This document shows positions 18,638-60,439 of a stretch of 64,000 bases of DNA, one piece after another. The position numbers and the translations under genes were made by a program. The DNA lies in the IMG/VR virus record IMGVR_UViG_3300018079_000001, positions 37,822 to 101,821 of that record. One strand, 5' to 3'. The number at the start of each line of letters is the position of its first letter. Position 1 is the first letter of the stretch. The DNA is from a virus. Under the pieces are notes generated by a model. That model was not told where the DNA came from. It did not search any database and was given only the letters and a program-made list of their open reading frames with translations.

Positions 18638-20272
18638 ATGGAACTGCTGAAAGCATTCAAGGCCGCCCGCGTGGCGGCGGTGCCGATTGTCGCCGTGTCG
18701 TGCTTCGACCCGGCCGACGTGATCAAGAAGATTCGCGCGTCGAACGAAGAGGGCGCGAAGACGCCGATCCCGCTTGTGCAGTGGGATGCAATGGACGGAA
18801 TGAAGGGCCTGAACACGGCGGGCAAGGCGGCGGTAGCTGCCGTGCTGAAGGGTGACGAGAAAGACTGGCCGGGCATGACGAGCAACCCAGGTGCCGCGCT
18901 CGGGTTCATGAGCGAGCTACCCGGCGAGCAACGCGAGGGCGGTCGGCCGGACGGTGCCATTCAAATGCGCGGTACGATCGTGTTCGCCCTGAACCTGCAC
19001 AACTACTTCGAGGATCGGCCGAGCAAGGAAAACGCGCCGATCGTGCAGGGCGTGTGGAATCTGCGGGACCGGTTCAAGGCCAACCGGCGCACGCTCGTGG
19101 TGCTCGGGCCTGGCTTCAAATTTCCGGCTGAGATCGCGAATGACGTGATCAGCCTGGACGTGCCGATGCCGACCGACGAGGAACTGACCGCGATCATCGC
19201 CAAGGAAGTTTCGGGTGTCGCGGGCCTCGCTGCGCTGGACGAGAAGACGATGCAGTCCGCCGTTGATGCGGTGCGCGGGCTGCCGAGCGCGTTCACGGTC
19301 GAGCAGGTATCGCGGATGTCCATGACGAAAGAGGGCATCGCGATCGACGAGTTGTGGGAGCGGAAGATCAGTACGATGGAGATGACTTCGGGCCTGAGCG
19401 TGGACCGGGGAACCGAGACGTTCGATGATGCAGGCGGGCTGGACCAGTTTAAGACGTTCGGTCTGCGGCTGGTCAAGAGCGAGAAGTCGCCGCTTCTGTA
19501 CGTGCGCATTGACGAGATCGAGAAGTTTCTCGGTGGACTCGGTGGTGGCGGTAACGCGGGCGACAACACGGGCGTGTCTCAGGATGCGCTCGGGGTGTTC
19601 CTGCGCGAGATGGAAGACAACGGCTGGAATGGCCTGATCGCACTCGGCCATGCCGGCGCGGGAAAGTCGCTGATCACGAAGGGCCTCGCGAATACCGCCT
19701 CGAAGCTGACCGGGCGGCGGGTCCTGAGTGTGGCTCTGGACCTGGGTGCGACGAAGAACAGCCTGCTCGGTAAGAGTGAAGAGAGGTTGCGCACTCTATT
19801 CAAGGTGCTCAAGGCGGTCGGGGGTAAGCGCGTGTGCTTCATCGCCACGTGTAACGACCTGGACGTGATGCCGCCTGCTCTGCGTCGGCGGTTCAAACTC
19901 GGTATGTGGATGTTCGACTTGCCGACCCGCCCGCAGAAAGACGCAATCTGGAAGATCAACCTGACGAAGTTTGGTCTGAAGAAGCCGGCACGGCTGCCGG
20001 ACGATACGGACTGGACTGGCGCAGACATTCGTAACGTGTGTGAGCAGGCCGATCTGCTTGGTTGCTCGCTGGACGAGGCGTGCAACTACGTCGTATTCGT
20101 CGCGAAGAACGACCCGGACAGCATCTCGCGTCTTCGGGCCAAGGCGGACGGGAAGTACCTGGACGCCAACCGGCCTGGTGTGTATCGGGCCGCGCGACAG
20201 GAAGAGCTAGTGCCGAGCCTGGACGCTCCAACGCAGGGGCGAGCCAAGGTGAGCACGGACGAGGAAGTCTAA
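18638..20272 (+). CDS. AAA+ ATPase (Ycf46-like), C-terminal DEEV tag
   Basis: IDEIEK Walker B-like, GHAGAGKS Walker A, ATCN, PPALRRRF and WTGADI motifs. Confidence 0.85.
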   Translation: MELLKAFKAARVAAVPIVAVSCFDPADVIKKIRASNEEGAKTPIPLVQWDAMDGMKGLNTAGKAAVAAVLKGDEKDWPGMTSNPGAALGFMSELPGEQREGGRPDGAIQMRGTIVFALNLHNYFEDRPSKENAPIVQGVWNLRDRFKANRRTLVVLGPGFKFPAEIANDVISLDVPMPTDEELTAIIAKEVSGVAGLAALDEKTMQSAVDAVRGLPSAFTVEQVSRMSMTKEGIAIDELWERKISTMEMTSGLSVDRGTETFDDAGGLDQFKTFGLRLVKSEKSPLLYVRIDEIEKFLGGLGGGGNAGDNTGVSQDALGVFLREMEDNGWNGLIALGHAGAGKSLITKGLANTASKLTGRRVLSVALDLGATKNSLLGKSEERLRTLFKVLKAVGGKRVCFIATCNDLDVMPPALRRRFKLGMWMFDLPTRPQKDAIWKINLTKFGLKKPARLPDDTDWTGADIRNVCEQADLLGCSLDEACNYVVFVAKNDPDSISRLRAKADGKYLDANRPGVYRAARQEELVPSLDAPTQGRAKVSTDEEV

Positions 20273-20379
20273 CCGAGTGGAGGGTGCCCGGGCGCAAGGC
20301 AGGTAACGCGGACACCGCTGAAGGCCGAAAGCCTGAAGGCGACTAGGTGCCGCCCCGTAAACTCACAACGGAGGGAAAC

Positions 20380-20586
20380 ATGGCAGACAGTTTCGAGATT
20401 CAGATTCTCGATGACGGCACGATCAAGAGCACGACGGGTAAGGTTGGCGCGCAGAACCACCAGAGTGCCGAGGGCTTCTTCGGGATGCTGGCCCGCGTGA
20501 TGGGCGGCAAGACGACCCGTAACCGTCGCGGCGAACACGCTCACGTGCACTCGCACGGTGAGGGCGAGCAACACGAGCACGCGTAA
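20380..20586 (+). CDS. DUF2997-like small protein, His-rich C-terminus
   Basis: EIQILDDGTIK pattern; adjacent to Ycf46-like ATPase. Confidence 0.5.
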   Translation: MADSFEIQILDDGTIKSTTGKVGAQNHQSAEGFFGMLARVMGGKTTRNRRGEHAHVHSHGEGEQHEHA

Positions 20587-20623
20587 CCTTTAACCGGGCG
20601 AGAGCCTGAGACAGGAGCCACAT

Positions 20624-21568
20624 ATGAGCACGATCCCAACAACGGCAACGGTCATGGAGCAGAGCGTCGCGTTTGTCCTGGCCTTCTCACGCCCCGGCGT
20701 CAAGCGGGTCGTGCGGAAGTCGCAGGTGTCCGAGAAGAGCGAGGGCACCGACAACGCGGTTGTCGTGGATGCCGACAAGAGCATGATCAACGTCGGCAAG
20801 GAAATCATTGACTCCCCGCAACTGCGGGCGATCATCTCGCGCGATGGCGCGGTCCGCCAGTGGGTGAAGGCGCGCAGTCTGCCGAGTCCGCTGTTCAAGT
20901 CGGGTACGACGATCGTGCCGACTGTGCTCGTCGAGGCGGTGTACGAGTACCTCGAAAAGTCGAAGGCTGATCGGGACGCCGACATCGCGACGTTCCTTGA
21001 AGCCTACCCTGGCCTGGTCGAGGAAGCGAAGACGAAACTAGGGCCGCTGTTCGACGCTCGTCAATACCCCGCCGCGACGGCACTCAAAGGCGCGTTCGAG
21101 ATGCGGTGGAACATCATCGAATTCGGGACGCCCGGCAAGCTGAAGACTATCAGCAAGGCTCTGTACGATAAAGAGCGCGCCAAGGCCGAGGCCGAGTGGG
21201 CGGACGCCACGTCGCAGATTCGCAACGCGCTTCGCGTGGCGATGGCGGAACTGGTCGAGCACATGATCGAGAAGCTGTCGTCGGACAACGACGGCAAGGC
21301 GAAGACGTTCCGCGATAGCATGGTCAAGAACCTGACCGAGTTTTCCGATTTGTTCAACGCACGCAACCTGACGGGCGACTCGGAGTTGGCAGCACTCGTC
21401 GAGAAGGCGCAGAAGGTCATGAGCGGCGTGGACGCGAAGTCACTGCGGACTGACGCCGACATCAAGCAGCGTGTGGCTGATGGTTTCGCGGAGATCAAGG
21501 CGAACCTCGACACGATGGTGATTGACCGCCCGACGCGGGCGTTGACGATCGCTGACGAGGAAGTCTAA
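20624..21568 (+). CDS. DUF3150-like helical protein, C-terminal DEEV tag
   Basis: Y...LG.LF....YP and K.FRDS...NL..F..LF...NLTGD.EL pattern; AAA-module context. Confidence 0.55.
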   Translation: MSTIPTTATVMEQSVAFVLAFSRPGVKRVVRKSQVSEKSEGTDNAVVVDADKSMINVGKEIIDSPQLRAIISRDGAVRQWVKARSLPSPLFKSGTTIVPTVLVEAVYEYLEKSKADRDADIATFLEAYPGLVEEAKTKLGPLFDARQYPAATALKGAFEMRWNIIEFGTPGKLKTISKALYDKERAKAEAEWADATSQIRNALRVAMAELVEHMIEKLSSDNDGKAKTFRDSMVKNLTEFSDLFNARNLTGDSELAALVEKAQKVMSGVDAKSLRTDADIKQRVADGFAEIKANLDTMVIDRPTRALTIADEEV

Positions 21569-21892: not shown

Positions 21893-22066
21893 ATGGCAGT
21901 GAGTGACAAGACAGTCCGGGGCGCGTACGAGATACCGGCCGCGCAGGTTGCGCTACAGCATTACGCGCCGTGGTTCGAGTTGCTGCGAGCGGGCGAGGCT
22001 TTGGTTCAAGGGGGTAAACATTTACTCCGGGCGTTGCGCGCCTGGCGAAAGAGGGAGGGTGTCTGA
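21893..22066 (+). CDS. small hypothetical protein (paralogue B; not in ORF track)
   Basis: GGAG RBS; MAVSDKTVRGAYEIPAAQVALQHYAPWFELLR...; stop overlaps the next ATG. Confidence 0.55.
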   Translation: MAVSDKTVRGAYEIPAAQVALQHYAPWFELLRAGEALVQGGKHLLRALRAWRKREGV

Positions 22067-22386
22067 TGCCGTGTGATAGCGTCGTCCTGAACACAGTCGA
22101 ATTGGACAAGGTCGGTGACCACGATCTACTCGAAAAGGCTCTGGCTGGAGAATTCGGCACCGTGCGCCGCAACGGTACGACGATGACGTTCACGTACCAG
22201 GGACGCACAGTCACGATCCGCAACGGCCGCGCCGAGTCGAGCCTGAGCGAGAGCACGCTGCAACAATTGGTCGGCCAGGTGAAGCAGGCGTACAGCCGCG
22301 AGGCCGTGCACATGGCGGCGAAGCGGTTCGGGTGGATGATCAAACCCGGCAGGGACAAGAACAACTTCACGGTTGTGAAGAACTAG
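22066..22386 (+). CDS. DUF1257/Ycf35-like protein
   Basis: MPCDS...D.DLLEKAL...VKQAYS....AAKRFGW pattern; AAA-module context. Confidence 0.55.
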   Translation: MPCDSVVLNTVELDKVGDHDLLEKALAGEFGTVRRNGTTMTFTYQGRTVTIRNGRAESSLSESTLQQLVGQVKQAYSREAVHMAAKRFGWMIKPGRDKNNFTVVKN

Positions 22387-22387
22387 C

Positions 22388-22882
22388 ATGTGGCCGGGCG
22401 AGTTTCCTGACGATGCGGGTAGTGCCAGTGGTGACTGGACTGTCCGCCTGGTTGGCCGTGCGCTGATTGAAGCCACGGCGGCGAGCACGGGTAAACCGTT
22501 CATGGCGCGGATTGTAGGACGTGACAATACGTACACGTGGCAGCGTCAGTGGCTCAAGCCGAAGTGGGAGTTTCCCGCGCGCAACGCGAACCCCGCCGCG
22601 ATCGTGCGGCTGGTCCTGCCTGTGTCTGCTGTCGGCAAGTTGCCGGCTGCTCTGGACATACGGTGGGGGCCAGCGACGGGCGGCACGGGTATCGACGTGA
22701 AGAACGGACAGGCGTTTCGCTACTGCGGGTATCGTAGTCTGTTTATCCTGGACGCGGCTGGCTTGCGGCAGGCGACTGAGCAGCACGTGACGTGGCTGCT
22801 CGACGAGGGCATCGTGGTTTCCGGACCACCACGTCGTGAGCCGGGCTCGCGCCCGGTGCTGAGGTTCGATGAAGAAGTTTGA
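22388..22882 (+). CDS. hypothetical protein, C-terminal DEEV tag
   Basis: 164 aa; ends SRPVLRFDEEV. Confidence 0.6.
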   Translation: MWPGEFPDDAGSASGDWTVRLVGRALIEATAASTGKPFMARIVGRDNTYTWQRQWLKPKWEFPARNANPAAIVRLVLPVSAVGKLPAALDIRWGPATGGTGIDVKNGQAFRYCGYRSLFILDAAGLRQATEQHVTWLLDEGIVVSGPPRREPGSRPVLRFDEEV

Positions 22883-23480: not shown

Positions 23481-23864
23481 ATGATAGTTCTGAAAGAGAT
23501 GGACCCGTTCAAGCTGAAAGAGTACGTGCACGCTATTCAGCGGTGCGGTGATCACCCGTTGCCGGGTCTGACCGACAGTGACGTGCTCGACAAGGTTGTT
23601 GAAATTCTCGACTGCTACATCGAATCGGCCGAGACGTACGAAGACACGTCGTCGAAGATCATCTTCCTGCTCGACGATGGGCGGGTCGGTGTGTTCGAAG
23701 AGTGGTCCGACTCGTCGGGTCACGGCTGACAGTGCGGCGCATCGTGGGGGCTGTATGCTTCCAAAGACGCAGCATGCACTGAGGGCAAGCTGGTATGGGA
23801 TGAAACCGCGACGCTAATCGAGCGGCTGCAACGGGCGCCGATTGCGTTCGATGAAGAGGTATGA
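23481..23864 (+). CDS. UGA-interrupted protein (in-frame TGA 23727-23729), C-terminal DEEV tag; Sec/read-through candidate or pseudogene
   Basis: ...WSDSSGHG*QCGASWG...RLQRAPIAFDEEV* in one frame. Confidence 0.65.
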
Positions 23865-23945: not shown

Positions 23946-24022
23946 CGGGGAATCGTCTAGCGGCCAAGGATGCCGGTCCTTCAAACCGGAAGACGCGGGT
24001 TCGAATCCCGCTTCCCCGACCA
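23946..24022 (+). tRNA. tRNA-Glu(UUC), atypical C33
   Basis: CGGGGAA/TTCCCCG acceptor, Glu-type D arm, CCGGT-CCTTCAA-ACCGG anticodon arm, TTCGAAT loop, CCA. Confidence 0.85.
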
Positions 24023-24023
24023 C

Positions 24024-24113
24024 GTAAGCGATGGGCGAATTGGCTGAGCCCGCCTGTCTGTAAAACAGGCGCAGTGACCCTGCATGGAGGTTCGATTCCT
24101 CCCGCTTGCACCA
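24024..24113 (+). tRNA. tRNA-Tyr(GUA)
   Basis: CCTGT-CTGTAAA-ACAGG arm, long variable arm, TTCGATT loop, ACCA end. Confidence 0.9.
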
Positions 24114-28396: not shown

Positions 28397-29616
28397 AGTT
28401 GAAGGCGAAGACGCCAGCGCTACCGTGCGAGGGCTGCCCGTACGAGTCGAGGCGGTGCAAGATTACGCCCGTGATCCCCTCTGCTCCTCGTCTGCTAGTG
28501 GTCGGTGACGCGCCTGACGAGGGCTCGGAATTCACCATGACCCCCTTTTCCGGACCTGAACAGGAATTGATCACTTCTGCCCTGGCTGCCGTGGGGTACG
28601 GTGAGGCGGATGTGGCCTACCTGAACCTGACGCGCTGTAGGGCGGCAGGTGATGACTTGACCGGGCCGGTGCACCTGAAGGCCGAGAAGCGTTGCCGGAA
28701 ATTCCTGGAGCCTGACCTGACCCGCACAGAGGTTTCCGGAATACCCCTACTTTTGCTCGGGGAACGTGCCCTACACCGTTTCTGGAAAGAGGAGGGCCGC
28801 AAGCCGACCGTGGGCGCCTACCGTGGACTGTGGATCGAGGCCAAGCAAATCACGCCTGGGCGTAAGGCGTTCGTGGCGCGGCATCCGCGCGAGGTTCTGC
28901 GCGACCGCGCAATCGACGCACGTTCTGCGGAGTTTAAGGCTGATATTCGCCGCATGGCTGTCAGCCTGACTGACGCACCGCTGGCCCTGATCAAGCGTGA
29001 AGTCTATGCGACCGTCCGCGAAGCGCGTGAGGCTGGTTTCTTCGAGCGTCTTGCTGCTTTGACTACACCGTGGGCGTTCGACATCGAGGCGTACGACGCC
29101 GTCGAGTTCCCGTCCCGCAAATTCGTGTCCACCGATCCCTGTCACCCGGACTTTCGTTTGCGTGGTATCGCGTTCGCGTGGGCGACCGACGAGGGCGCGT
29201 ATGTGGACCTGAAGGAAGCCTCTGAGAGCGGCGATCTGCTCGAAGCATCTGAGGCACTGACACCGTGCTTCGCTAGCGATGCCGATAAGTGGGCGTTCTC
29301 CGGGCACTACGATGAAGAGGGTGTGGTCTACACGAAGGTCGCGGCGGACGGTGTGCACAACCGGGCTGGCGATGGCATGCTCGCCATGATCGCGCTCGGC
29401 GACGGTACGCACGATTCTCTACGCCTAGAGAAAGCCGTGGTAGACGTGCTTGGGAAGCCTCAGTATTGGCAGGGCTTCGATAAGTCCATGATGCGTGATG
29501 TATCGCTGGCAGACGTGGCTGATGGAGCGATCGGCGACGCCTGCTACACGTTCGAGTTGTGCACTGATCTTCACGACCGCATCCGTCGCGAAGACTATCT
29601 GCTATGGGGGAACTGA
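28393..29616 (+). CDS. DNA polymerase A N-terminal part: UDG family-4-like + 3'-5' exonuclease domains
   Basis: CEGCP, VVGDAP, PFSGP, NLTRCR and RHP (UDG); AFDIE ExoI, HYD ExoII and DA..T ExoIII. Confidence 0.8.
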   Translation: MKLKAKTPALPCEGCPYESRRCKITPVIPSAPRLLVVGDAPDEGSEFTMTPFSGPEQELITSALAAVGYGEADVAYLNLTRCRAAGDDLTGPVHLKAEKRCRKFLEPDLTRTEVSGIPLLLLGERALHRFWKEEGRKPTVGAYRGLWIEAKQITPGRKAFVARHPREVLRDRAIDARSAEFKADIRRMAVSLTDAPLALIKREVYATVREAREAGFFERLAALTTPWAFDIEAYDAVEFPSRKFVSTDPCHPDFRLRGIAFAWATDEGAYVDLKEASESGDLLEASEALTPCFASDADKWAFSGHYDEEGVVYTKVAADGVHNRAGDGMLAMIALGDGTHDSLRLEKAVVDVLGKPQYWQGFDKSMMRDVSLADVADGAIGDACYTFELCTDLHDRIRREDYLLWGN

Positions 29617-29618
29617 CT

Positions 29619-30125
29619 GTGGCTGACACGACAAATCCGAAGGACTTGCTCGGCGTGAAGAAGACACCGCTCCGTCTCGTACCGCCCGCGCTGAGCATCT
29701 GGACTGCGGGTGTGATGGCGACCGGCAAATCGAAGTACGGGGAACTGTACGACGTGTGGGGCTATGACGGCATGAACTGGCGCATGAAGGCCGTTCGCCT
29801 GTCGGTGTACCTCGAAGCGATCGAGCGACACCTGAACGCCACGAAAGACGGGCAGTGGTTCGACGAGGAAGACGGCATGCCGCACGTGGCGCATATCTCG
29901 GCGTGCGTGTGCATCATCCTTGACGCCTGGGCATGCGAGCAATTGATCGTTGACCTACCGCCGCGTGGCACAGCAGCCGAGCAGATGAAGCTGGTCGAGA
30001 AGATTCTCGCCGAGCATGCGGACATCCTGACTGCGCACGAGACGAAGCAACGGGAGCGTAAGAAGAACGAACCGAAGCCTGACATCGAACACGAAGAGCA
30101 CGACGGCGTCGAGCAGAACGCATGA
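29619..30125 (+). CDS. dATP/dGTP diphosphohydrolase-domain protein (DUF5664-like)
   Basis: NPKD..G.KK.PL.LVP...G..KYG...NWR...A.ERH......G...D.E.G.PH.AH. Confidence 0.8.
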   Translation: MADTTNPKDLLGVKKTPLRLVPPALSIWTAGVMATGKSKYGELYDVWGYDGMNWRMKAVRLSVYLEAIERHLNATKDGQWFDEEDGMPHVAHISACVCIILDAWACEQLIVDLPPRGTAAEQMKLVEKILAEHADILTAHETKQRERKKNEPKPDIEHEEHDGVEQNA

Positions 30126-35165: not shown

Positions 35166-36137
35166 ATGAAGGTGCCACGCCGGGGTAGTGTAAGAGCACG
35201 CGCCCGTTCCACGGGTGTAGAGACGGTTTCGCCCGTTCCCCCGGCTCCAATTTCAACTCCGCTGTTTGAAATAGACCCAATGAAAATTCGTATTGTGGCT
35301 GCGCCAACTTCTGAAGTAGCAAAGCTCCAGCCGCTTATGTCGAAGGCGATCTGGCGTCCGTACGGGAGAAGGCTTGCTTTCAAGGTCGTCTATGACGATG
35401 CGCTTTTGGGTATAGTGTTTCTTACGTGTCCAGTTATTCAATTGACAGCTCGTGACCAAGCATTTGCATTTGCTACTAACGGGATGCTTCCGCTCCCCGG
35501 AAAAGGACAGCGAGATTCTAAAGGCCGAAAGCGCACAGATATTCTGAAGCACTATGCAGAAATGTCGATCTGTGTAGGAGCGCAGCCGATCGGGTGGTAT
35601 TGGAATTTGGGGAAGTTATGCGCCATGCTTGCGACCACTTTATCGGATGAATGGCGAGAACATCTGTGGGCAAACGCCCCGCATCATGTTGATCTATACG
35701 GAATCACGACTACATCTCTGAATGGAGGAAAGTGGAGCGGACGCGGGACTCAGTACAGTAGGATTTATAAATACCTCGGAGAAACCAAAGGCTTCGGCCA
35801 TGAACACATTTCGGAGGAACGCTATCAAGGCATGCTCCAGTGGATGCGCGATAATCGCGTAGAAATTCCTAGTTCAAAATTCGGTGCTGGTAGTAACCCT
35901 CGGATGCGGCGTATTCTAGCGTACCGCAGGGCGAGTGGGGATAACGAGGTTACTCTGAAGCATGGTAAGAAGCGTGGTGTTTATTATGCTCAAGCGCGTC
36001 CTACGTCGGAGCGTCCACTGGTCATTAAGGAGTGGTACGAACGTTGGGGAAAGCCGCGCTATGATCGGACCAAGAATCTTACGGCTCCGTATCAAGATGG
36101 AAAAAGTACCCGACAATCTACTGGAGACAAAGTATGA
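35166..36137 (+). CDS. DruA/DUF4338-like (GNAT-related) protein
   Basis: GRRL.F.V...LLG...L..PV..L..RD, GAQP....LGKL.A.L, ITTTS, QYSR...LGETKG.G; lower GC. Confidence 0.7.
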   Translation: MKVPRRGSVRARARSTGVETVSPVPPAPISTPLFEIDPMKIRIVAAPTSEVAKLQPLMSKAIWRPYGRRLAFKVVYDDALLGIVFLTCPVIQLTARDQAFAFATNGMLPLPGKGQRDSKGRKRTDILKHYAEMSICVGAQPIGWYWNLGKLCAMLATTLSDEWREHLWANAPHHVDLYGITTTSLNGGKWSGRGTQYSRIYKYLGETKGFGHEHISEERYQGMLQWMRDNRVEIPSSKFGAGSNPRMRRILAYRRASGDNEVTLKHGKKRGVYYAQARPTSERPLVIKEWYERWGKPRYDRTKNLTAPYQDGKSTRQSTGDKV

Positions 36138-40453: not shown

Positions 40454-40576
40454 TCGAGCGGGTTTCAGCAAGCCCGCATGTCCGGTGTGTGGGGCGGACA
40501 CGCGCCGTCTGCGTAAGCCGAAATGGTCGGTCTGCGAGACGGGGCACCGGCTCTACAAACTCAAGGGGAGATAGTT

Positions 40577-41895: not shown

Positions 41896-42326
41896 ACAAG
41901 TGGGACGCGCGCTTCATGGACATGGCGAAGCTGGTGTCTTCGTTCTCTAAGGACCCAAGCACACAAACGGGCGCGGTCATCGTGGACCCGCGCAATCGGG
42001 TTGTGTCGGTGGGCTTCAACGGTTTCCCGCAAGGTATCGCGGATACGCCCGAGCGGCTGAATGATCGTGAGACGAAGTACGCTCTGATCCTGCATTGTGA
42101 GCATAACGCTGTCCTGCTCGCGGGCAAGTCGGTCGAGGGGTGCACGCTGTACACGTATCCCTTCGGCTCCTGCACGCGGTGCGCGGTGACAATGATCCAG
42201 GCTGGCATCAAGCGTGTAGTCTTCCCGCCATGCCCGGCTGATAAGATGGATCGGTGGGGACCAGACCTGATCAGGGCCGAGAACCTGTACCGTGAGGCTG
42301 GCATCGAGGTAGTGCCGCTGTCATGA
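41892..42326 (+). CDS. dCMP deaminase
   Basis: SKDPSTQ.GA, G(F)NGFP, HCE.NA and C..C motifs. Confidence 0.9.
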   Translation: MNKWDARFMDMAKLVSSFSKDPSTQTGAVIVDPRNRVVSVGFNGFPQGIADTPERLNDRETKYALILHCEHNAVLLAGKSVEGCTLYTYPFGSCTRCAVTMIQAGIKRVVFPPCPADKMDRWGPDLIRAENLYREAGIEVVPLS

Positions 42327-43507: not shown

Positions 43508-43841
43508 ACACCGCAGTAGGACGCTGGCGGCTGATCGTCCGCGACGCCGGCACGGCCGCCAGCGCGATCGAGAACCTACACCGTTGCCTCGCCAAGATCG
43601 AGGAGCGGGCAGAGAAGCTGCCGTTCGTTGACGACGTATGGTTTAATGAAGTGCGCACCGAGTGCTGCCGTGAGCTAGAGCAGGCGAAGCTGAGTCTCGG
43701 CAAGGCCCTGGCCTCACTTGATATTGTCGGAAGCCGTGAGCGTCAGTGGTGGGCTCGTGTCCGGAAACGTGTGGAGGCAAAGGATCGCGAGCGACGGCTC
43801 AAGCTGGACGCGCCAAATATCTAAAAAAGGCGAAGGCTCGT

Positions 43842-43858
43842 TGATCCTACTAAGTAGG
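43842..43858 (+). promoter_or_regulatory. 17-bp element copy 6
   Basis: Exact repeat fused to the rtcB RBS. Confidence 0.8.
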
Positions 43859-43873
43859 GGGAGGGACAACGCC

Positions 43874-45085
43874 ATGCAAGTCTTCGCTGAGCAGGGACGC
43901 GCACCGATCAAATCCTGGACGGATGGGGTAGAGTTGGACCCTAACGCGCTCGGGCAGCTTCGCAATACGGCCAGCCTACCGTTCATTTTCAAGCACGTAG
44001 CCGTTATGCCCGACGTGCACCTGGGTATCGGTGCCACGGTGGGCAGTGTCATACCCACAAAGGGTGCGATCATACCCGCTGCGGTGGGTGTGGACATTGG
44101 CTGCGGTATGATCGCGGCCCGGACCCCACTGACGGCGAGCGACCTACCCGACAGCCTCGCGGCACTTCGGACCAACATCGAATGGGCGGTGCCGCACGGG
44201 CAGAACCAATACAAGCACGCGGTGGCCCCGATTGGCGAGCAGAACGCAATCATGGATGCGTACAAGATCATCTATGACAGACACAAGGGCTTGCCGAATC
44301 CGGGGACCGATTGGGCCGGGAAGATCGTGCGGCAACTAGGGACACTCGGCGGCGGAAACCACTTCATCGAAGTGTGCCTCGACGAAGAGCAGCGTGTGTG
44401 GGTGATGTTGCACTCGGGCTCGCGCGGTATCGGCAACAAGATCGGCAGCTACTTCATTGAGCTAGCCCGCAAAGACATGCGACTGCATTTCATCAACCTG
44501 CCCGACCGCGACCTAGCGTACCTGAGCGAGGGCACGCAGTATTTCCTCGACTACTGGAACGCGGTGAAGTGGGCGCAGAACTACGCGCTCGTGAACCGTC
44601 GCATCATGCTCGAACGTACGCTGGATCAGGTGCAGCGGGCACTGTGGAAGACGTGGGAGACGGAGCCGATGCCGGTAGAGATCGCGGCTAACTGTCACCA
44701 CAACTACGTGGAGCGCGAGAACCACTTTGGCGAGAACATCCTCGTCACGCGCAAGGGTGCGGTACGCGCCCGCCTGGGTGACATGGGCATCATTCCCGGT
44801 AGCATGGGCGTGCGTTCGTACATCGTGCGCGGCCTGGGTAACGCCGAGTCGTTTCAGTCCTGCTCGCACGGAGCGGGACGCCGTATGTCGAGAACCGCCG
44901 CACGGAACACATTCAGCGTCGAAGATCACGTGCAGGCGACGGCCGGCGTCGAATGCCGTAAGGACGTGGGTGTGATCGACGAAACGCCGGGGGCCTACAA
45001 GGACATCGAAGCGGTCATGGCAGCGCAGACGGACCTGGTCGAGATCGTGCACACGCTCAAAGGTGTGCTGTGTGTGAAGGGTTGA
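43874..45085 (+). CDS. rtcB: RtcB RNA ligase
   Basis: MPDVH.G.G, VGVDIGCG, GTLGGGNHF, HSGSRG, HN, RKGA, PGSMG, SHGAGR and DE.P.AYK motifs. Confidence 0.95.
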   Translation: MQVFAEQGRAPIKSWTDGVELDPNALGQLRNTASLPFIFKHVAVMPDVHLGIGATVGSVIPTKGAIIPAAVGVDIGCGMIAARTPLTASDLPDSLAALRTNIEWAVPHGQNQYKHAVAPIGEQNAIMDAYKIIYDRHKGLPNPGTDWAGKIVRQLGTLGGGNHFIEVCLDEEQRVWVMLHSGSRGIGNKIGSYFIELARKDMRLHFINLPDRDLAYLSEGTQYFLDYWNAVKWAQNYALVNRRIMLERTLDQVQRALWKTWETEPMPVEIAANCHHNYVERENHFGENILVTRKGAVRARLGDMGIIPGSMGVRSYIVRGLGNAESFQSCSHGAGRRMSRTAARNTFSVEDHVQATAGVECRKDVGVIDETPGAYKDIEAVMAAQTDLVEIVHTLKGVLCVKG

Positions 45086-45308
45086 TGCTCGGCTGGTATT
45101 TCGCGTGGATTGCGCTCATGTCAGTGGTAGGCACGGACGTGATGGGGCCGTACCCGACGCAGGCCGTGTGCATCGCAGCGCGTGATGGCGCGAAGGACTT
45201 CGGTGGTGTGACGACGACGCAGTGCACGAACGACGCGCGGTTGTACGATGACATGCTGTTTTGGGAGTTGGAACTGGAAGAGATGATTGCTAACAGTGGA
45301 GGGCCGAC

Positions 45309-46355
45309 ATGAGCGTAGAGATCAACGAATACACGTCCTGGCACAGCTATCCGGACTCGAACGCACTCGGGCACAAGTATCTGACCGAGCTATTCTTCGA
45401 TGCCGTGACGGTCGAGGAAAAGGTGGATGGCTCACAGTTCTCGTTCGGCGTGTTCGGTGACTTGCCGAGCGATATGCGTTTCCGCTCAAAGGGCGCGCAG
45501 ATTTTCGTCACCGATGATGGGCACTCGTCCGAGAAGATGTTCGATAAGGCGGTGCAGTCGGTCATCAAGCGGCAGTACCTTTTGCACGAGGGCTGGACCT
45601 ACCGTGCCGAGTACCTGCCGAAGCCGAAGGCCGTGACGCTAACGTACGATCGGGTGCCGCGTGACCTGTTCGACAATACGGACGCGTACCTGATCGGTTA
45701 CGACGTGGAGATTGCCGACGAAGTGTTTCTTAGCCCGGACGAGAAGCGCGAAGAATTTGCGCGTATCGGCCTGGAGTGCGTGCCGTGCTTCATGAACGAA
45801 GAGACGATAACGGACATCGAAGCGATCAAGGCACTGCTCGCGGAGACGAGCATCCTGGGCGGGCAATTGATCGAGGGCGTGTGCATCAAGAACTATCACC
45901 GCTGTACGCCAGACAAGAAAATCCTGATCGGCAAGTACGTGTCCAAGACGTTCAAGGAATTGCACGGGCGGGATTGGGCAAAGGGAAACCCGAAGTCGGG
46001 AGACATCGTGCAGACGATCATAGAAGACATCCGGACTCCGGCTCGGTGGGCGAAGGGGGTTCAGCACCTTCGCGAGGCGGGGAAGTTGACTGACAGCAAC
46101 CAGGACATCGCGCTTCTGTTTCAGGAGATACCCGCTGACATCAAGAAGGAACTGGAAGGCAGGATCAAGGACGAGTTGTTCAAGTGGGCGTGGCCGAAGA
46201 TCAGTCGAGGCGCGATGGCTGGTATGCCCGAGTGGTACAAGGAACTGCTCGCGGCGGGCCAGCCGATGCCAGAGGGCCACGAGCCAAAGGGACCGGATTA
46301 TCAGCCGCAAGGTATGAATCCATATGACCACGCCGAAGAGGGAGGGCAAAGCTGA
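45309..46355 (+). CDS. ATP-dependent RNA ligase (Rnl2-like)
   Basis: EKVDGSQF motif I, AE, YD, EGVCIK and K.V...FKE. Confidence 0.75.
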   Translation: MSVEINEYTSWHSYPDSNALGHKYLTELFFDAVTVEEKVDGSQFSFGVFGDLPSDMRFRSKGAQIFVTDDGHSSEKMFDKAVQSVIKRQYLLHEGWTYRAEYLPKPKAVTLTYDRVPRDLFDNTDAYLIGYDVEIADEVFLSPDEKREEFARIGLECVPCFMNEETITDIEAIKALLAETSILGGQLIEGVCIKNYHRCTPDKKILIGKYVSKTFKELHGRDWAKGNPKSGDIVQTIIEDIRTPARWAKGVQHLREAGKLTDSNQDIALLFQEIPADIKKELEGRIKDELFKWAWPKISRGAMAGMPEWYKELLAAGQPMPEGHEPKGPDYQPQGMNPYDHAEEGGQS

Positions 46356-47279: not shown

Positions 47280-47744
47280 ATGGCTCGTGTTCGTGTTCGG
47301 CGGTATGTGTCTCTTGGGTCTGCTCTTCGGTTGCTCGACGGTCGAACAGATACACGACGTAGACTCCCCGCTCGACGAAGCACATCGGTTCTGATGGACC
47401 TGTCGTCTATCGAGGCCGTGAAGGCGAAGGCGGCTCGGGCCAAGGCGCGTCGAGCGCGCACGAGGAGGGAGCAATTTTCAAGCTGTAGCGGCTGCGGACG
47501 GTTCGGCCTGGTCCTCAAGAAGAGTTTGTGCTCGGAGTGCATTCGCGTAAATGAAATCATGGAGAGAGACATGGCACAGAAGAAGCTGAGTGGAGGATCA
47601 TCGCGCGGAGACAAGCTGCCGACCGTGGGCAAGTTGTTCCTGCTCCCGAAGCGCGAAGCGAAGACTCCCGATAAGCCAATCGAGTCACCTAAGCCACAAC
47701 TCGAAGGCAGAGCACCGCGCCCGCAAGACGGGGAAGAAGTATAG
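47280..47744 (+). CDS. basic Zn-ribbon protein, C-terminal GEEV tag (start uncertain)
   Basis: CSGC...CSEC; ends EGRAPRPQDGEEV. Confidence 0.55.
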   Translation: MARVRVRRYVSLGSALRLLDGRTDTRRRLPARRSTSVLMDLSSIEAVKAKAARAKARRARTRREQFSSCSGCGRFGLVLKKSLCSECIRVNEIMERDMAQKKLSGGSSRGDKLPTVGKLFLLPKREAKTPDKPIESPKPQLEGRAPRPQDGEEV

Positions 47745-48259
47745 TGCCTTCGCTCGGTGACGGATTCAGCATGGACACAGCGAATGTTTGCCTCTGTGGT
47801 CATTGGAGCGCGTCGCATCGTGGTGGTGGTAAGGCAACGTGCGAGGGTATGCGCTGTGGCTGTTACACGTTCAGGCAATTGACCACGGAGAACTGCGGGG
47901 TCGGGGTGAACCTGCCCAAGTGCCCGAAGTGCGGGTCAGTGCTCACGGGCCGGACCGTGACGCTCGGAGCGCGCGGTATGACACTGATCGTAGAATGGAA
48001 GCACCTGATGGGTAACTCGTGCAAGACGATCGAGCAAGTCAAGATGGACGAAGAAGCGGCAGAGCGGATCAAGGCTGAAGCACGTCAGCGCAACACATTT
48101 GGTGACGCCGGGGCGTTCGATGAAGACGAGTTCGAGTACGAGTACACACTGGACGATCCGGTAGGAGCGAAAGCCAAGGCGCGGGCCGTCCCGAAGCCTG
48201 AGCCGCCAAAGCCTGAACTGACTGGACGCGCCCCGCTGGCGTTGGAGGAAGAGGTATGA
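47744..48259 (+). CDS. Cys/His zinc-binding protein, C-terminal EEEV tag
   Basis: C.CGH...H...C...C.C and CPKC; ends TGRAPLALEEEV. Confidence 0.6.
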   Translation: MPSLGDGFSMDTANVCLCGHWSASHRGGGKATCEGMRCGCYTFRQLTTENCGVGVNLPKCPKCGSVLTGRTVTLGARGMTLIVEWKHLMGNSCKTIEQVKMDEEAAERIKAEARQRNTFGDAGAFDEDEFEYEYTLDDPVGAKAKARAVPKPEPPKPELTGRAPLALEEEV

Positions 48260-50664: not shown

Positions 50665-51234
50665 ATGGGAGTCAAAGGCGTTCTGACATCGAAAATGCGT
50701 GAAGCCGCTAAGGGCATCCGTGCCCCTGGACGTGAGAATGGGCCGACACTCGCCAACATGGGCGAGCCGCGTGCTCGCAAGGCGAAGCTGCGCGACGAGA
50801 CACGCCAGTATACGGTCGAGGCGGTGGACCTGGCTGAGTGGGTGAGCGGTGAGAGCCGCTTCAACGTGGTCGAGATCGTGTACGACAACGCCGAGGATGC
50901 CTTCGTGGTGACGCTATCGTCGGCGAAGCAAGCCGAGCAGCCGAGGATAACGAAGCGCGACGCGTTTGTGGACAGAGACACCGAAGCACGGTTGACGAGT
51001 GGCCCACAGGTTTCGGATGACGATGCAGGCGACATGGGCACGGCTGACGCGGTGCCTGCTATCGCATCTCGGGGTGAGCGTGACAGATTGCGCAAGCACG
51101 TGCGCTCCCGGCGTGAAATCCTGATCGAAGCGCAGAAGCAGGGAAAGCCGGCACCGGCCGCGAGGATCACGCATCGGGAGACGGACGAAGACGATCCGGT
51201 TCCGAGCGCGCTTCCGGACCATATCAATCGGTGA
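50665..51234 (+). CDS. hypothetical protein
   Basis: GGGGAGGG RBS. Confidence 0.6.
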   Translation: MGVKGVLTSKMREAAKGIRAPGRENGPTLANMGEPRARKAKLRDETRQYTVEAVDLAEWVSGESRFNVVEIVYDNAEDAFVVTLSSAKQAEQPRITKRDAFVDRDTEARLTSGPQVSDDDAGDMGTADAVPAIASRGERDRLRKHVRSRREILIEAQKQGKPAPAARITHRETDEDDPVPSALPDHINR

Positions 51235-52112
51235 TGACTGGCCTCGAAGCGCAGATCGAGGTAGCGGTCGGCATCGGCATCAGTGCGCTGACCATTGGGG
51301 GTGTGTTTGGGTGGTGCTCGTTCAAGCACCGCATGCAGCCGAGTGGCACGCGCAAGTATGGCATCGTGTACACGTGCCTGAAGAATGCACCGACGTATGA
51401 CATGGCGGGCAAGTTCCCGCCCGAGTCGCGCATGCCTGACCTGTACTGGCACACGCGTGCAGCGTGGGGTTGCAGAGAAACGTCGCTTGCATGGTGGGGT
51501 TGCAAGGAACCGACGCTCTTGCCGCATCCGCTCGTGTACGTGAATAAGGACGGCGAGAGCGTGACCTGTCACTGTGGCAGGCTCGTCGGTCAGTACGTGG
51601 TGACTCGCGACGCGCAGAACGTATGGTTCCGCGCCACGGGCGAGCTAAACTGGCTGACGAGTGCAGGGCGTTCGCTGAGCGATGACGAGGCGGCTCTGGT
51701 CACCCGCAGGCAGTACGAGGCTGAGTCGATCAGGCTCAGCGGTGGACGCTTTGTGGGACCGAATGAAGAGGGGGCTCGACGATGGGAGCCCACGCCGAAG
51801 TTTACAGTCGAGACGGCTGGAATGGCGATGGGAACACGGAAAGTGATACGTTCCGAGCAAGGTGACGTGTATACACAGATCACGTGCACACGGTGTGCGA
51901 GGCAGATGTCCGAAGATGAGTTCTATACTCAGCATTTCGTGGGTACGCCCGCGACGCTGAAGTGTGAGTCAGCACTCGGGGGAATGACTACGTGGGAGCG
52001 TCTTAACGGTGTGGACCGCAAACGGCCCAAGGCTCCCGATGCGCGCGTGGTCCTGGCTGAAGCGATCGAGGCCGGCGTGCGAGCACCGTTGTCCTTCGAT
52101 GGGGAAGTGTGA
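51231..52112 (+). CDS. hypothetical Zn-binding protein, C-terminal DGEV tag
   Basis: Ends VRAPLSFDGEV. Confidence 0.6.
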   Translation: MMTGLEAQIEVAVGIGISALTIGGVFGWCSFKHRMQPSGTRKYGIVYTCLKNAPTYDMAGKFPPESRMPDLYWHTRAAWGCRETSLAWWGCKEPTLLPHPLVYVNKDGESVTCHCGRLVGQYVVTRDAQNVWFRATGELNWLTSAGRSLSDDEAALVTRRQYEAESIRLSGGRFVGPNEEGARRWEPTPKFTVETAGMAMGTRKVIRSEQGDVYTQITCTRCARQMSEDEFYTQHFVGTPATLKCESALGGMTTWERLNGVDRKRPKAPDARVVLAEAIEAGVRAPLSFDGEV

Positions 52113-52124: not shown

Positions 52125-52349
52125 GTGGCACCACGCGACGCGGACGAGCCTGGACCACGCTGCACGTGTAGGCATACGAAGGCGCGGCATGCGAGTCCGG
52201 GATGTCTCGTGTACCTGGAAGACGCGTCTGAGTTCTGTCCATGCGCCGTGTACACGAAGCCTGGCTCACCCAAGGCGAAGGCTAGGGCGAAGACACTAGC
52301 CGACTTCTTCCCGGTGCGGGCCAGGCTCGCGTTCGACGAGGAAGTGTGA
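52125..52349 (+). CDS. small Cys/His protein, C-terminal DEEV tag
   Basis: CTC.H...H...C...C.C; ends VRARLAFDEEV. Confidence 0.6.
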   Translation: MAPRDADEPGPRCTCRHTKARHASPGCLVYLEDASEFCPCAVYTKPGSPKAKARAKTLADFFPVRARLAFDEEV

Positions 52350-52825
52350 TGGGCAGCATCGAAATACCTTTGACCGCGCTCCGTGAATGGGTGGCTACGG
52401 GCAAGAAGATCAGAGAGGTTGCTCCTATGGCAGCGATGACGACGGCAGTGAAGCAAGCGCAGGACCGCGCTATCCGTGTGCGTCGCGTGCAGCAAGTGCA
52501 GACTCTTGACGGCCGCGTGATCATGCAGGACTTCGACTTCGAGTCGCCACGGATCATGACGACGAACGGCACCAACCTCGACGTGCCGGTGACGGCGCAG
52601 AAGCAGAAGCCGAGCGTGGCGACCGTGATGGCTGACGAGGACTTTAAGCTAGCGTGCCTGGCAGCAGGTGTCGAAATATCCAGGCGGCAGGCGTCGAAGT
52701 TCCGCAAGGGACACGGTGCAGCGTTCGCGGCACAGGAGAAGCGTAGGCTGGCAGCACTCGCATATGATCCGACACCTGTGCTCGAAGGACGCGCGCCGAG
52801 GCCCCGCGACGGCGAGGAAGTATGA
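52349..52825 (+). CDS. hypothetical protein, C-terminal GEEV tag
   Basis: F..AC..AG....RRQASKFR.G.G.A pattern; ends EGRAPRPRDGEEV. Confidence 0.6.
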   Translation: MGSIEIPLTALREWVATGKKIREVAPMAAMTTAVKQAQDRAIRVRRVQQVQTLDGRVIMQDFDFESPRIMTTNGTNLDVPVTAQKQKPSVATVMADEDFKLACLAAGVEISRRQASKFRKGHGAAFAAQEKRRLAALAYDPTPVLEGRAPRPRDGEEV

Positions 52826-52862: not shown

Positions 52863-53144
52863 ATGCCGGGATTTGCTGAGCAATTGGACGAATCGCGCCT
52901 GGACGACGTGCTGACCTTCGAGGGCCAGTCGGTGACTCGGCGTGACGCACAAGTGCTCCTGGCGCAGATGGTGCCGGGCTCCGACCTGGTGGACGCCGTC
53001 AAGCGGATCGCACGAGCGCGCAACATGGGGTTTTCGCAGTTCGGGAGTGAGTCTCCGATTGTACCCGTTCCGCCACTGTTCGAGCCGATGCCGCTGCCCT
53101 ATCCTGATAAGCGGGCGCCGCTCGACTTCGACGAGGATGTGTGA
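52863..53144 (+). CDS. hypothetical protein, C-terminal DEDV tag
   Basis: Ends KRAPLDFDEDV. Confidence 0.6.
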   Translation: MPGFAEQLDESRLDDVLTFEGQSVTRRDAQVLLAQMVPGSDLVDAVKRIARARNMGFSQFGSESPIVPVPPLFEPMPLPYPDKRAPLDFDEDV

Positions 53145-58347: not shown

Positions 58348-59898
58348 ATGCGGCTGATCAATCAGCTTGACCCGATTCAATCTGTCGAGGAGAGCCCGGA
58401 CGAAATCCTCACGCTCGGGTGTCAGAACGATCTTGAGACGTTTGTCGAATTCGCCTGGCCTACCGTCGTTCGTGCCGCGAAGTTTCAGAACAACTGGCAT
58501 ATCGGGGCAATCTGCGAACACTTGACCGCGCTCTACAAGTTGGATTTCAAGAACCTCCTGATCAACGTCCCGCCCCGGTTCGGCAAGTCGGTCATCTCGT
58601 CGGTGATGTTCCCTGCGTGGCTGTGGCTTCAGGACCCGAAGCTGCGCATGCTCTACTCGTCCTACTCACAACCGCTCGCGACGCGTGACTCGCTGTACAC
58701 GCGGCAATTGATTCAGAGTCCGTGGTATCAGGGGCAGTGGGCAGATCGCTTTACGATTGCCGGCGATCAGAACGAGAAAATGCGCTTCGAGAACACCGAC
58801 AAGGGCTATCGGCTCGCCACGTCGGTTGCGGGTGCCAACACTGGAGAGGGTGGCGACCTGATCGTCTGCGACGACCCACACAACGTGGCCGAGGCTGAGT
58901 CAGACCTGAAACGGGAAGAGGCCGTACGGTGGTGGAACGAAGTCATGAGCACCCGAGGCAACGACCCACGCACCGCTCGACGCGTGGTCATCGCGCAGCG
59001 CGCCCACTTCGCCGATCTGTCACAGGACATCCTGGACAAGGGCGAGTACGTGCACTTGAATCTGGCGATGGAGTTCGAGAAGGGTGCAAAGCTAATCAGC
59101 GTCCCCTCGGGGGTGCAATGGCTGCCAACCGAGGTAGACGAACGCGTAGAAGACGGCGAGTTACTGTGGCCGGCGCGCTACGATACTGCGTGGGTTGCAG
59201 CGCAGAAGATCGCGATGGGCAGCTACGCCTACGCTGCGCAGTTCCAACAGCGTCCGACCCCGCGTACGGGCGGCATGTTCAGCCGCGACAAGATCGTCAT
59301 TGATACCCTGCCCCTGGAGCTACGCCTGGAAAAGGGATGGGACGACGCGGTGTGGTCCTGGGATATGTCGTTCAAAGACTTGGCGGACTCAGACTATGTG
59401 GTCGGTCAGTGCTGGATTCGAAAAGGCGGCATGTTCTACCTGATCCACCAGACACGAGCGCGTATGGCGTTCTCAGCCACGAAGGCGGCTGTGCGCACGA
59501 CCCGAGCGAAGTTCACGAGGATCACCCGTATCCTCGTCGAGGACAAGGCGAACGGCACCGCCGTGATTGATGACCTGCGTACGACCATCCCTGGCCTGAC
59601 CCCTGTCGAGCCGATGGGCGGCAAGGAAAGCCGAGCGTCCACGGTCGAGCCGCTGTGGGAGTCGGGCTGTATCGTCCTGCCGATGGGCGCCCCGTGGGTA
59701 GAGGACTTCATTCAGGAGTGCGCTGAGTTCCCTCGGGGAGCCTACGACGACCAGGTGGACGCTATGTCACAGGCCCTTGTGTGGCTCTTAAACCGATACA
59801 ACATGCCGGGCGGGGCGTCGGTCGGTAGCTTCACGAAAAGCACGCTCCCCTGGCAGCGAGGCCCACAACAGGGGTACAAGGACCCCCGAGGCGAGTGA
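58348..59898 (+). CDS. terL: terminase large subunit
   Basis: NWH, PPRFGKS Walker A, TGEGGD..VCDDPH, QQRP, SWD, VEDKANG and FP.G..DDQVDA. Confidence 0.95.
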   Translation: MRLINQLDPIQSVEESPDEILTLGCQNDLETFVEFAWPTVVRAAKFQNNWHIGAICEHLTALYKLDFKNLLINVPPRFGKSVISSVMFPAWLWLQDPKLRMLYSSYSQPLATRDSLYTRQLIQSPWYQGQWADRFTIAGDQNEKMRFENTDKGYRLATSVAGANTGEGGDLIVCDDPHNVAEAESDLKREEAVRWWNEVMSTRGNDPRTARRVVIAQRAHFADLSQDILDKGEYVHLNLAMEFEKGAKLISVPSGVQWLPTEVDERVEDGELLWPARYDTAWVAAQKIAMGSYAYAAQFQQRPTPRTGGMFSRDKIVIDTLPLELRLEKGWDDAVWSWDMSFKDLADSDYVVGQCWIRKGGMFYLIHQTRARMAFSATKAAVRTTRAKFTRITRILVEDKANGTAVIDDLRTTIPGLTPVEPMGGKESRASTVEPLWESGCIVLPMGAPWVEDFIQECAEFPRGAYDDQVDAMSQALVWLLNRYNMPGGASVGSFTKSTLPWQRGPQQGYKDPRGE

Positions 59899-59921
59899 TC
59901 GGCAGAATGTCACTGTTCTGT

Positions 59922-59938
59922 TGATCCTACTAAGTAGG
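59922..59938 (+). promoter_or_regulatory. 17-bp element copy 10
   Basis: Exact repeat. Confidence 0.8.
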
Positions 59939-59947
59939 GGGAGTCTT

Positions 59948-60439
59948 ATGGGTGTAAGCGACGGCGGTGAGGGGTGGGTGTTTCAGGCTCCTTGGGCGCC
60001 TTGGGATGCCGCGCAGCCGAAGCCAACCACGCGCCAGCCGATCGACCAGGACATGTGCAAGTGCGGACACGCATACCCCGAGCACAAAGCCAACGGGTGC
60101 AGCTTCCGCGAGACGGTGTTTGCGGACATTGCGCGGAACGGTCCTTCGGGGCCGCAGTGCGAGTGCAAGAAGTTCGAGTTCCGGTACGGGACGGACATGG
60201 CCCGTCTGGAAAAGGTGATGAAGGACATCATGGCCTTGACGTTGGCGAAGCAGGACGTGACGTTGCAGGACATCGAGAACATTTTGCGCCCGGTGCTTGT
60301 GGGAGAGCCGAAGCCGATTTACGTGGATCGACCCGTGCCAGCGCCGGCTGAGCCAGTGCAGAAGGTGGTCGATCGGTTGTTCTCGGTCAAGCCGACACTC
60401 GAAGGACGCGCATCGTTTAACCTGGACGAAGAGGTATGA
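59948..60439 (+). CDS. Cys/His zinc-binding protein, C-terminal DEEV tag
   Basis: CKCGH...H...C...C.C..F; ends EGRASFNLDEEV. Confidence 0.6.
   Translation: MGVSDGGEGWVFQAPWAPWDAAQPKPTTRQPIDQDMCKCGHAYPEHKANGCSFRETVFADIARNGPSGPQCECKKFEFRYGTDMARLEKVMKDIMALTLAKQDVTLQDIENILRPVLVGEPKPIYVDRPVPAPAEPVQKVVDRLFSVKPTLEGRASFNLDEEV

Follow-up and report, generated by a model that had tools for sequence, protein, structure and literature searches.

Why should a phage let eleven or twelve of its otherwise unrelated proteins end in nearly the same ten residues? This question was raised by the final 64 kb of the virus record IMGVR_UViG_3300018079_000001 (positions 37,822 to 101,821; this whole stretch of 64,000 nucleotides is called the window in the following), which belongs to an uncultured soil phage with a complete genome of 101,821 bp, direct terminal repeats, and 59% G+C. 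A gene call based on codon usage revealed about 154-155 genes genome-wide, all except one on the plus strand. Eleven called genes terminate with the pattern R-A/P-x4-5-[DEG]-[DEG]-E/D-V (here called the tail), while a twelfth tail is reached only via read-through of a TGA codon. Based on the comparisons below, the tail is probably a short linear docking motif, i.e., an address tag for one docking site, of a self-contained and horizontally mobile module around a Cdc48-like AAA+ ATPase, because the peptide is the local version of a conserved tail of this module.

Occurrence of the tail and selection on the peptide

All tail matches were found on the plus strand and in real genes. In the 155 called genes (31,250 residues) on which the tail statistics are based, the expression R.{5,6}[DEG][DE][DE]V resulted in 10 matches, all of them (10/10) C-terminal and none internal, while shuffling of the last 30 residues left a mean of 0.01 matches, i.e., a strong enrichment restricted to C-termini. 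At the same time, 11 C-termini ended with [DE][DE]V, compared to 0.19 expected by chance (binomial P 1.6e-16). Carriers of the tail amount to about 8% of the phage proteome (about one protein in thirteen). Over the 25 residues preceding the tail arginine, proline is 3-fold enriched, and CxxC-type pairs were detected in six of the 11 certain carriers, with the ATPase and a SWIM zinc-finger protein counted. The twelve C-termini listed in an earlier note on this DNA were all recovered at their stops, but only eleven belong to genes accepted by the codon-usage call, the twelfth (stop 23864) being conditional on read-through. The same note had remarked that no phage tail, replication, or terminase protein of the window carries the peptide, which agreed with our gene call and family scans of the window.

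Upstream of the window, an 809-aa protein (genome 21659-24088; L046:6660-9086) ends with ARKFANGEEV, its last 120 residues corresponding to an XkdF-type prohead protease. As a candidate for a thirteenth tail this ending was rejected, since it lies inside the protease domain, and the resemblance is probably coincidental. The preceding gene product of 1105 aa revealed 2H-phosphoesterase and PI3/4-kinase-like domains.

The target of selection is the peptide of the tail, neither its DNA nor a ribosome-binding site, because codon choice within the tails is random. Information in the tail codons was 0.68 bit at position 3, half of that at positions 1 and 2 (1.33 and 1.48 bit, respectively), and identical tail residues shared the same codon in 39% of pairs, compared to 41% expected from the codon usage of the genome. 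Two identical RARLAFDEEV peptides (stops 23478 and 52349) differ at 8 of 10 codons, and TAA, TAG, and TGA are all used as stop codons. Thus, the protein-level selection assumed in the earlier note was corroborated, while an overlap with Shine-Dalgarno sequences, which it had named as a possible refutation, was not borne out. That the tails reflect a nucleic-acid feature instead, be it a signal for ribosome binding (Shine-Dalgarno) or translational coupling, a repeat with a regulatory role, or a DNA cassette duplicated not long ago, is refuted by these codon data: although GAGGAAGT is rich in purines and five of the twelve tail stops abut or overlap the next start, the other seven are located 37-403 nt away from it, codons are shared as expected from the genome, all three stop codons are used, and the real boundary element of this phage is a separate palindrome-containing repeat of 17-18 nt.

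The ATPase family and its mobile module

The tag system is not special to this phage, as the tail also ends a widespread ATPase family and its DUF3150-like partner. Searches with the 544-aa ATPase of the window resulted in 3,011 metagenomic clusters (50% identity) at E<=0.001, of which 962 reached E<=1e-30. Its AlphaFold2 (AF2) model revealed a mean local confidence (pLDDT) of 93.6 with a disordered tail (residues 525-544), and over its full length Foldseek aligned it with the D1-D2 tandem of p97/Cdc48/Rix7 (E 1e-12). The first AAA-like domain is degenerate, with no P-loop at residues 16-24, while the Walker A motif GAGKS is present in the second (339-344), and the AAA domain is nearest to those of Rpt, katanin, and Cdc48. 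A p97-type double-psi-barrel N domain is absent; nothing precedes the first AAA-like domain in the model, and Foldseek aligned D1D2 only.

An alignment of 111 family members displayed an arginine column kept in 109 of them, followed by [RAK], [IFLV], any residue, [LV], and often acidic residues, and most of these ATPases terminate 5-10 residues past the conserved arginine. Alignment-free counts led to the same picture: R-x-h-x-h (h, hydrophobic) was found within the last 12 aa of 74 of 150 ATPase homologues, compared to 8.7% of internal windows, and R-x-h in 118 of 150, compared to 22%. Judged by the arginine column and these counts, the conserved core appears to be R-x-h-x-h, with the DEEV end as an elaboration of the present lineage. 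That DEEV is the essential element was therefore not confirmed: tails of relatives end with EE, ED, LD, LRD, EA, QD, etc., their last residue being E, D, A, or N, and G002 even has an internal motif, which lies 13 residues before the end. The orthologues in a 71%-identical relative (L001/L002) carry RAITLADENV, RAKIRFDDDDV, and RARNAFDEEV. For the DUF3150-like protein, 29 homologues were identified, in which RPxRAhxhxDEEV-type tails are kept down to about 40% identity; its model consists of helices and a disordered tail, without a match in PDB, and profile searches against PDB with this family and that of the 106-aa module protein also resulted in no match. Generally, the tail is conserved more strongly than the bodies of its carriers, as seen in the DUF3150-like homologues and in P0181, the sole homologue of the orphan 51231..52112, which shares 39% identity and ends with IRAPLALDEEV. 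Homologues of the SWIM protein end with RARNAFDEEV (L002), RRFSFEE (L009), and RRRVFDLRED (L010/G002).

Two further observations concern the ATPase itself. Between residues of about 286 and 344 (window 19490-19670), a Walker-B-like hhhIDEIEK with invariant E293, E295, and K296 lies about 45 residues upstream of Walker A, and the strand following Walker A harbors a sensor-1-like ATCN; this order of motifs is unusual for an AAA domain but kept family-wide. The long homologues P0049, P0073, and P0156 (810-861 aa) were considered as Rosetta-stone fusions and rejected, since the additional sequence is an intein (Hint with LAGLIDADG or HNH) near Walker A, while a scan of P0090 (912 aa) detected an AAA domain only.

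The ATPase belongs to a module together with DUF1257-like, DUF2997-like, DUF3150-like, and SWIM proteins, which also occurs on a bacterial plasmid and in phages that are unrelated in other respects. Distant ATPase-bearing phages with 35-72% G+C have nothing detectable in common with this genome outside the module; the genes they share are those for the ATPase and the DUF3150-like protein, while the two small proteins and the SWIM protein were detected by BLAST in some of them only. The His-rich protein is kept beside the ATPase in L002, L003, L005, L008, and L010. In G005, the small protein within the module is a clear DUF2997 member (4e-15), to which the His-rich protein of the window, without a Pfam match of its own, showed an hhalign E of 0.0016 at a probability of 16%. 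The 106-aa protein is kept in L002, L008, L010, and G003; the G003 homologue matches DUF1257 only weakly (E 0.055), and the window protein itself, without any Pfam match at E<=1, occupies the slot of an annotated DUF1257 gene on plasmid CP114559. Similarly, the DUF3150-like protein of the window had no match at E<=0.01, while its 45%-identical homologue P0019 matches DUF3150 with E 3e-5 (23.9 bits at a cut-off of 24.9); its slot on CP114559 is filled by an annotated DUF3150 gene.

Plasmid CP114559 of Ca. Manganitrophus (Nitrospirota) carries, according to its depositors' annotation, AAA, DUF1257, DUF2997, and DUF3150 genes in the same order; its ATPase ends with RRLRG.., its DUF3150 protein with RKIRIL.., and a nearby 847-aa protein with RKIRLSPGS. 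The ATPase family also reaches cyanobacteria. Because of the family matches in G005 and G003 and the gene order and tails of CP114559, the phage cluster appears to be one form of the Ycf46/Ycf35/DUF2997(+DUF3150) module, which is uncharacterised, although the small proteins of the window remain below the family thresholds. With the set of Ycf46 (AAA+), Ycf35 (DUF1257), and DUF2997 with DUF3150, it has in common the gene order annotated on the plasmid and an ATPase (about 500 aa) whose first AAA-like domain is degenerate and whose second is active; matching R-[RK]-h-R-h tails are present on the plasmid as well. In the phage version, a SWIM protein is added, and the tail is found on 7-8 further proteins. 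The only paper found on this set does no more than list a duf2997-ycf35-fed7 cluster (PMC4284462).

Distant relatives carry 2-4 tails per genome, compared to 11-12 among the about 154 genes of this phage. In Tunturi_3, gp96 (L014 15696-16655), a DUF3150-like homologue with 34% identity, ends with DRKFHLEGEEF; its annotation as 'HNH endonuclease' is probably wrong. Within one genome, tails of unrelated proteins were more alike than tails of the same family across genomes. Matching pairs are RKVILD/RKVILE (G004), RRVRLRD twice (L016), RRALAG/RRAIGF (G003), RKFTLED/RKFNLE (G005), RKFDL twice (G002), and RKIRIL/RKIRLS on the plasmid, while the spelling DEEV occurs eleven to twelve times in the phage studied here. 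A comparison of the ATPase tail with the DUF3150-like tail of 12 genomes at positions +1 to +4 resulted in 17 identities, compared to 6.2 after permutation (P 1.3e-4), and a test limited to 10 less-related genomes still revealed P 3e-4. This matching within genomes argues for one shared reader that would co-evolve or drift with its ligand tails.

A probable docking motif and its alternatives

We read the tail as a docking tag since adaptors tethered to AAA+ machines have the same layout of recognition domain, flexible linker, and short terminal peptide. All tails would compete for one binding site encoded within the module, which may quite possibly lie on the ATPase hexamer and, with a smaller chance, on the tail-less small partners. 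The additional carriers, in which a small Zn-binding or other recognition domain would be followed by a flexible linker and the tail, would then be tethered adaptors or clients of the ATPase, comparable to SspB-ClpX or the p97 cofactors, so that one unfoldase or segregase could act on many targets during infection, while the ATPase's own tail could fill the same site in trans, either for the linking of hexamers or for auto-regulation. Going one step further, we propose tentatively that the tail may be a programmable, genome-specific address code read by the phage Cdc48-like segregase, in which functions are gained or lost by tagging genes, resulting in a viral adaptor network like that of p97 but aimed at host complexes. 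Among the options of the earlier note, the AAA+-linked one is favoured, because the tail is the ancestral end of the phage's own ATPase family and its DUF3150-like partner.

Several points weigh against docking. A receptor was not identified in this analysis; thus, of the shared-receptor tag proposed in the earlier note, the protein-level C-terminal tag survived the tests on enrichment, codons, tail conservation, and co-variation, while the receptor itself was not found. Docking in cis was not seen in the AF2 monomers, where the tails of the ATPase and of the DUF3150-like protein stay free and of low confidence. When tail positions were compared with 524 ATPase columns by mutual information in about 105 sequences, no signal above noise was found (top z 4.5). 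The sample behind the co-variation is small (12 genomes, some of them related), and the matching tails could also have arisen by gene conversion between tails, without any common reader; the random use of codons in the window tails speaks against recent conversion. Moreover, RAKVSTDEEV and the two RAPRP.DGEEV tails are devoid of the alternating hydrophobic residues of the ancestral core, so that in this lineage the acidic DEEV end may have assumed part of the binding, or those three tails may bind weakly. A complex prediction combining ATPase residues 1-524, the 106-aa protein, and the His-rich protein with the last 45 residues of the DUF3150-like protein resulted in a score of 0.00, which gives no answer and is evidence neither way.

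Among known AAA+ systems, the cofactor network of p97/Cdc48 is similar with regard to the D1-D2 fold, the disordered tail of the ATPase, and the use of one motif on many unrelated proteins. In p97, the cofactor motifs VIM, VBM, and SHP bind to the N domain, while PUB/PUL domains read the C-terminal tail. In contrast, the phage ATPase consists of two AAA domains in 544 residues without an N domain, ATPase and partners carry the same motif, and this motif is unrelated in sequence to VIM, VBM, and SHP in the forms generally known. The HbYX/GQYL tails (PAN, Rpt, Cdc48, Blm10; Mpa, Bpa) also place a common C-terminal peptide for one receptor on AAA+ and unrelated proteins, but none of the 12 tails or those of relatives has a penultimate Tyr, their core is an Arg with alternating hydrophobic residues, it lies 13 residues from the end in G002, and a 20S-type ring partner is not known in the module. 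The SspB XB-ClpX N domain pair shares the sequence of recognition domain, long flexible linker, and short C-terminal tethering peptide, but involves another ATPase clade and another peptide, and the phage ATPase has no zinc-binding N domain and is itself tailed.

Instead of being docked, the tailed proteins might be consumed: the ATPase, alone or with a host protease, would pull the disordered C-terminus into its pore and unfold, disassemble, or remove the tagged proteins, which would time the activity of early accessory proteins. A degron or substrate signal of this kind would suit an ATPase from the classical unfoldase clade, since the pores of such enzymes hold an extended chain by every other residue, fitting the alternating h-x-h on a disordered end, and the tagged proteins are small and non-essential-looking. 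We nevertheless consider it unlikely, as the ATPase and its constant DUF3150-like partner are themselves tagged in nearly all relatives, which would be odd for a destruction signal, the module contains no protease gene, and pore engagement is usually sequence-tolerant, yet the spelling of the tail co-varies within genomes. Loading of accessory proteins into the virion by a capsid-targeting or ejection signal, another option of the earlier note, is very improbable. It would have a parallel in principle in the cargo peptides of encapsulins, one tagged gene follows the terminase gene, and the polyprotein with the head protease outside the window also ends with GEEV. However, that GEEV is part of a folded domain, the tagged genes are located in early-type or accessory regions outside the structural block, and the module with matching tails is present on a plasmid without capsid genes.

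Docking to a host hub, such as the sliding clamp, an SSB-tip-type pocket, a chaperone, or a protease, would allow the phage to plug many of its proteins into host machinery. RAxLxF-D indeed resembles both the hexapeptide clamp motif (QxxLxF) and the acidic, hydrophobic-ended SSB tip, and the scan of replication genes revealed no clamp encoded by the phage. Compared to the clamp motif (QL[SD]LF/QxxLxF), however, Arg replaces Gln in all 12 tails, and three of them lack the hydrophobic pair. With the SSB tip (DDDIPF) and the EEVD ends of Hsp70/Hsp90 bound by TPR domains, the tails have in common an acidic C-terminal hub code on a flexible tail; yet their acidic run is without [IL]-P-F, the terminal Asp of EEVD is absent, the window tails end with E-E-V and those of relatives with E, D, A, or N, and the acidic part as a whole is lineage-specific, the conserved part being basic and hydrophobic. 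Pfam scans of 50 window proteins, a non-exhaustive part of the proteome, detected no TPR family. As class III PDZ ligands ([DE]-x-hydrophobic-COOH), the window tails would fit, but homologous tails (EE, ED, EA, QD, and the internal motif of G002) do not. Beyond that, the module occurs with matching tails in phages of 35-72% GC, on the Nitrospirota plasmid, and, by family, in cyanobacteria, so that a host reader would need to be universal and at the same time variable from genome to genome; because the unrelated phages have only the module in common, a reader within the module is indicated. Altogether, we regard a host hub as rather improbable.

A search of the literature revealed no published description of the tail or of a function of the module. 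In eukaryotes and archaea, short terminal peptides by which many proteins are directed to a single AAA+ machine have a central role in protein quality control, as in the p97 cofactors and proteasome activators, and to our knowledge none comparable have been described for phages. The tag characterises an ATPase family that comprises roughly a thousand metagenomic clusters at 50% identity and is tied by its conserved gene neighbourhood to the plastid and cyanobacterial Ycf46/Ycf35/DUF2997 genes, which are uncharacterised. If the tail is an address code, finding its reader would also open up this long-unexplained plastid and cyanobacterial gene set. The 10-residue tail could be used as bait for the reader, the tagged proteins represent a ready client list, and with Tunturiibacter phage Tunturi_3 one cultivable relative exists. 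To this, the window contributes the expansion of the tail, its strongly acidic spelling, the gain and loss of carriers between close relatives, and a possible carrier that depends on read-through.

Carriers, neighbouring genes and genome setting

The genes of the module and all tail carriers are compiled in Table 1. Searches of the carriers against Pfam, PHROGs, and NCBIfam detected only the AAA domain and a weak SWIM match, the ESM Atlas gave no usable lead, and the carriers outside the module are orphans.

Table 1. Module genes and tail carriers of the window (positions in the window; aa, amino acids)
Gene product	Position	Strand	C-terminus and remarks
Tandem (p97/Cdc48-like D1-D2) AAA+ ATPase, 544 aa	18638..20272	+	Ends GRAKVSTDEEV; Pfam AAA; module core, ancestral tail carrier
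Small His-rich protein, 79 aa; resembles DUF2997 in its position and, weakly, in its profile	20347..20586	+	No tail
DUF3150-like protein, 314 aa	20624..21568	+	Ends RPTRALTIADEEV
106-aa protein, invariant M-P-C start, DUF1257-like by position	22066..22386	+	No tail
164-aa orphan	22388..22882	+	Ends SRPVLRFDEEV; L002 homologue (50% identity) ends RAKIRFDDDDV
SWIM zinc-finger protein, 199 aa	22879..23478	+	Ends TRARLAFDEEV; Pfam SWIM E 0.0056
82-codon open reading frame, in-frame TGA 23727-23729, then 44 codons	23481..23864	+	Ends QRAPIAFDEEV; conditional twelfth tail
Cys-rich protein, 116 aa (204 aa if TTG 47130 is the start)	47394..47744	+	Ends LEGRAPRPQDGEEV; Arg 11 from end
171-aa protein, several CxxC pairs	47744..48259	+	Ends TGRAPLALEEEV; family search negative
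293-aa Cys-rich orphan	51231..52112	+	Ends VRAPLSFDGEV
Mini-protein, 46 aa (74 aa if GTG 52125 is the start)	52209..52349	+	Ends VRARLAFDEEV
159-aa orphan	52346..52825	+	Ends LEGRAPRPRDGEEV; Arg 11 from end
93-aa orphan	52863..53144	+	Ends DKRAPLDFDEDV
172-aa Cys-rich protein, directly after large terminase	59921..60439	+	Ends LEGRASFNLDEEV

The tagged gene behind the terminase (59921..60439) appears to be an insertion, because it is missing at this position in L048-L050, relatives with a 68%-identical terminase, and its absence there suggests that the set of tagged proteins turns over quickly. In the tail-less 106-aa protein, Cys at residue 3 is invariant (M-P-C start at window 22066-22074 and in L002, L008, L010, and G003), which hints at an N-terminal catalytic or modified residue.

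Regarding the conditional twelfth carrier, the 44-codon extension after the TGA has no start codon of its own, but displays a positive coding score in that frame only, and the genome encodes no selenocysteine (Sec) or suppressor tRNA. From these features, the twelfth tail would either need read-through, or the gene has been broken recently by a nonsense mutation; homologues of the protein were not found. If the tail is an address code, read-through at 23727 could yield tagged and untagged forms of one protein. Genes for tRNA-Glu and tRNA-Tyr follow at 23946-24113.

The gene order of the window starts with phage tail genes (1-16 kb), followed by small early-type genes and the ATPase cluster (16-25 kb), a region for replication and nucleotide metabolism (26-46 kb; UDG-like, MazZ-like, family A polymerase, gp32-like, RecA-like, SbcC-like, dCMP deaminase, RtcB, and RNA ligase), and small orphans with six tRNAs and the large terminase at 58348-59898 (46-64 kb). 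At the DNA level, no similarity to any GenBank phage was found. The sole isolate with the same ATPase (gp103) is Tunturiibacter phage Tunturi_3 (PP885686), which has an acidobacterial host. A search of genome contigs with the ATPase resulted in only four contigs of metagenome-assembled genomes, two of them labelled Acidobacteriota or Terracidiphilus, while the same search with the DUF3150-like family, aimed at prophage or host context, had no match. Due to the host of Tunturi_3 and the labels of these two contigs with true ATPase relatives, an acidobacterial host is plausible.

Gene boundaries of the phage are marked by the sequence TTGATCCTACTAAGTAGG, which contains the inverted repeat CCTACT-A-AGTAGG and occurs in eleven co-oriented copies starting at window positions 11277, 18401, 26237, 32004, 39129, 43842, 50299, 52833, 55168, 59922, and 62691. 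All copies lie at gene boundaries with a ribosome-binding site of the GGAGG type behind them, and the repeat is probably a promoter, operator, or processing site of the phage. It is unrelated to the tails, one copy being located after the tagged gene ending at 52825 and one before the tagged gene at 59921.

Some other genes of the window deserve mention. A search with PADLOC for defence systems resulted in weak generic AAA matches only. A protein encoded at 35280-36137 has a Pfam match to DruA of the Druantia defence system (E 6e-11). The joint presence of a MazZ-type dATP/dGTP diphosphohydrolase domain, a nucleoside 2-deoxyribosyltransferase, MazG, and dCMP deaminase (window 29604-30125, 40523-41092, 41473-42326) suggests a modified-base or nucleotide-pool programme. 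Finally, a gene for RtcB (E 5e-129) adjoins one for an RNA ligase (43718-46355), with the six tRNA genes elsewhere in the window, and this combination looks like a tRNA-repair kit of the type used against host anticodon nucleases.

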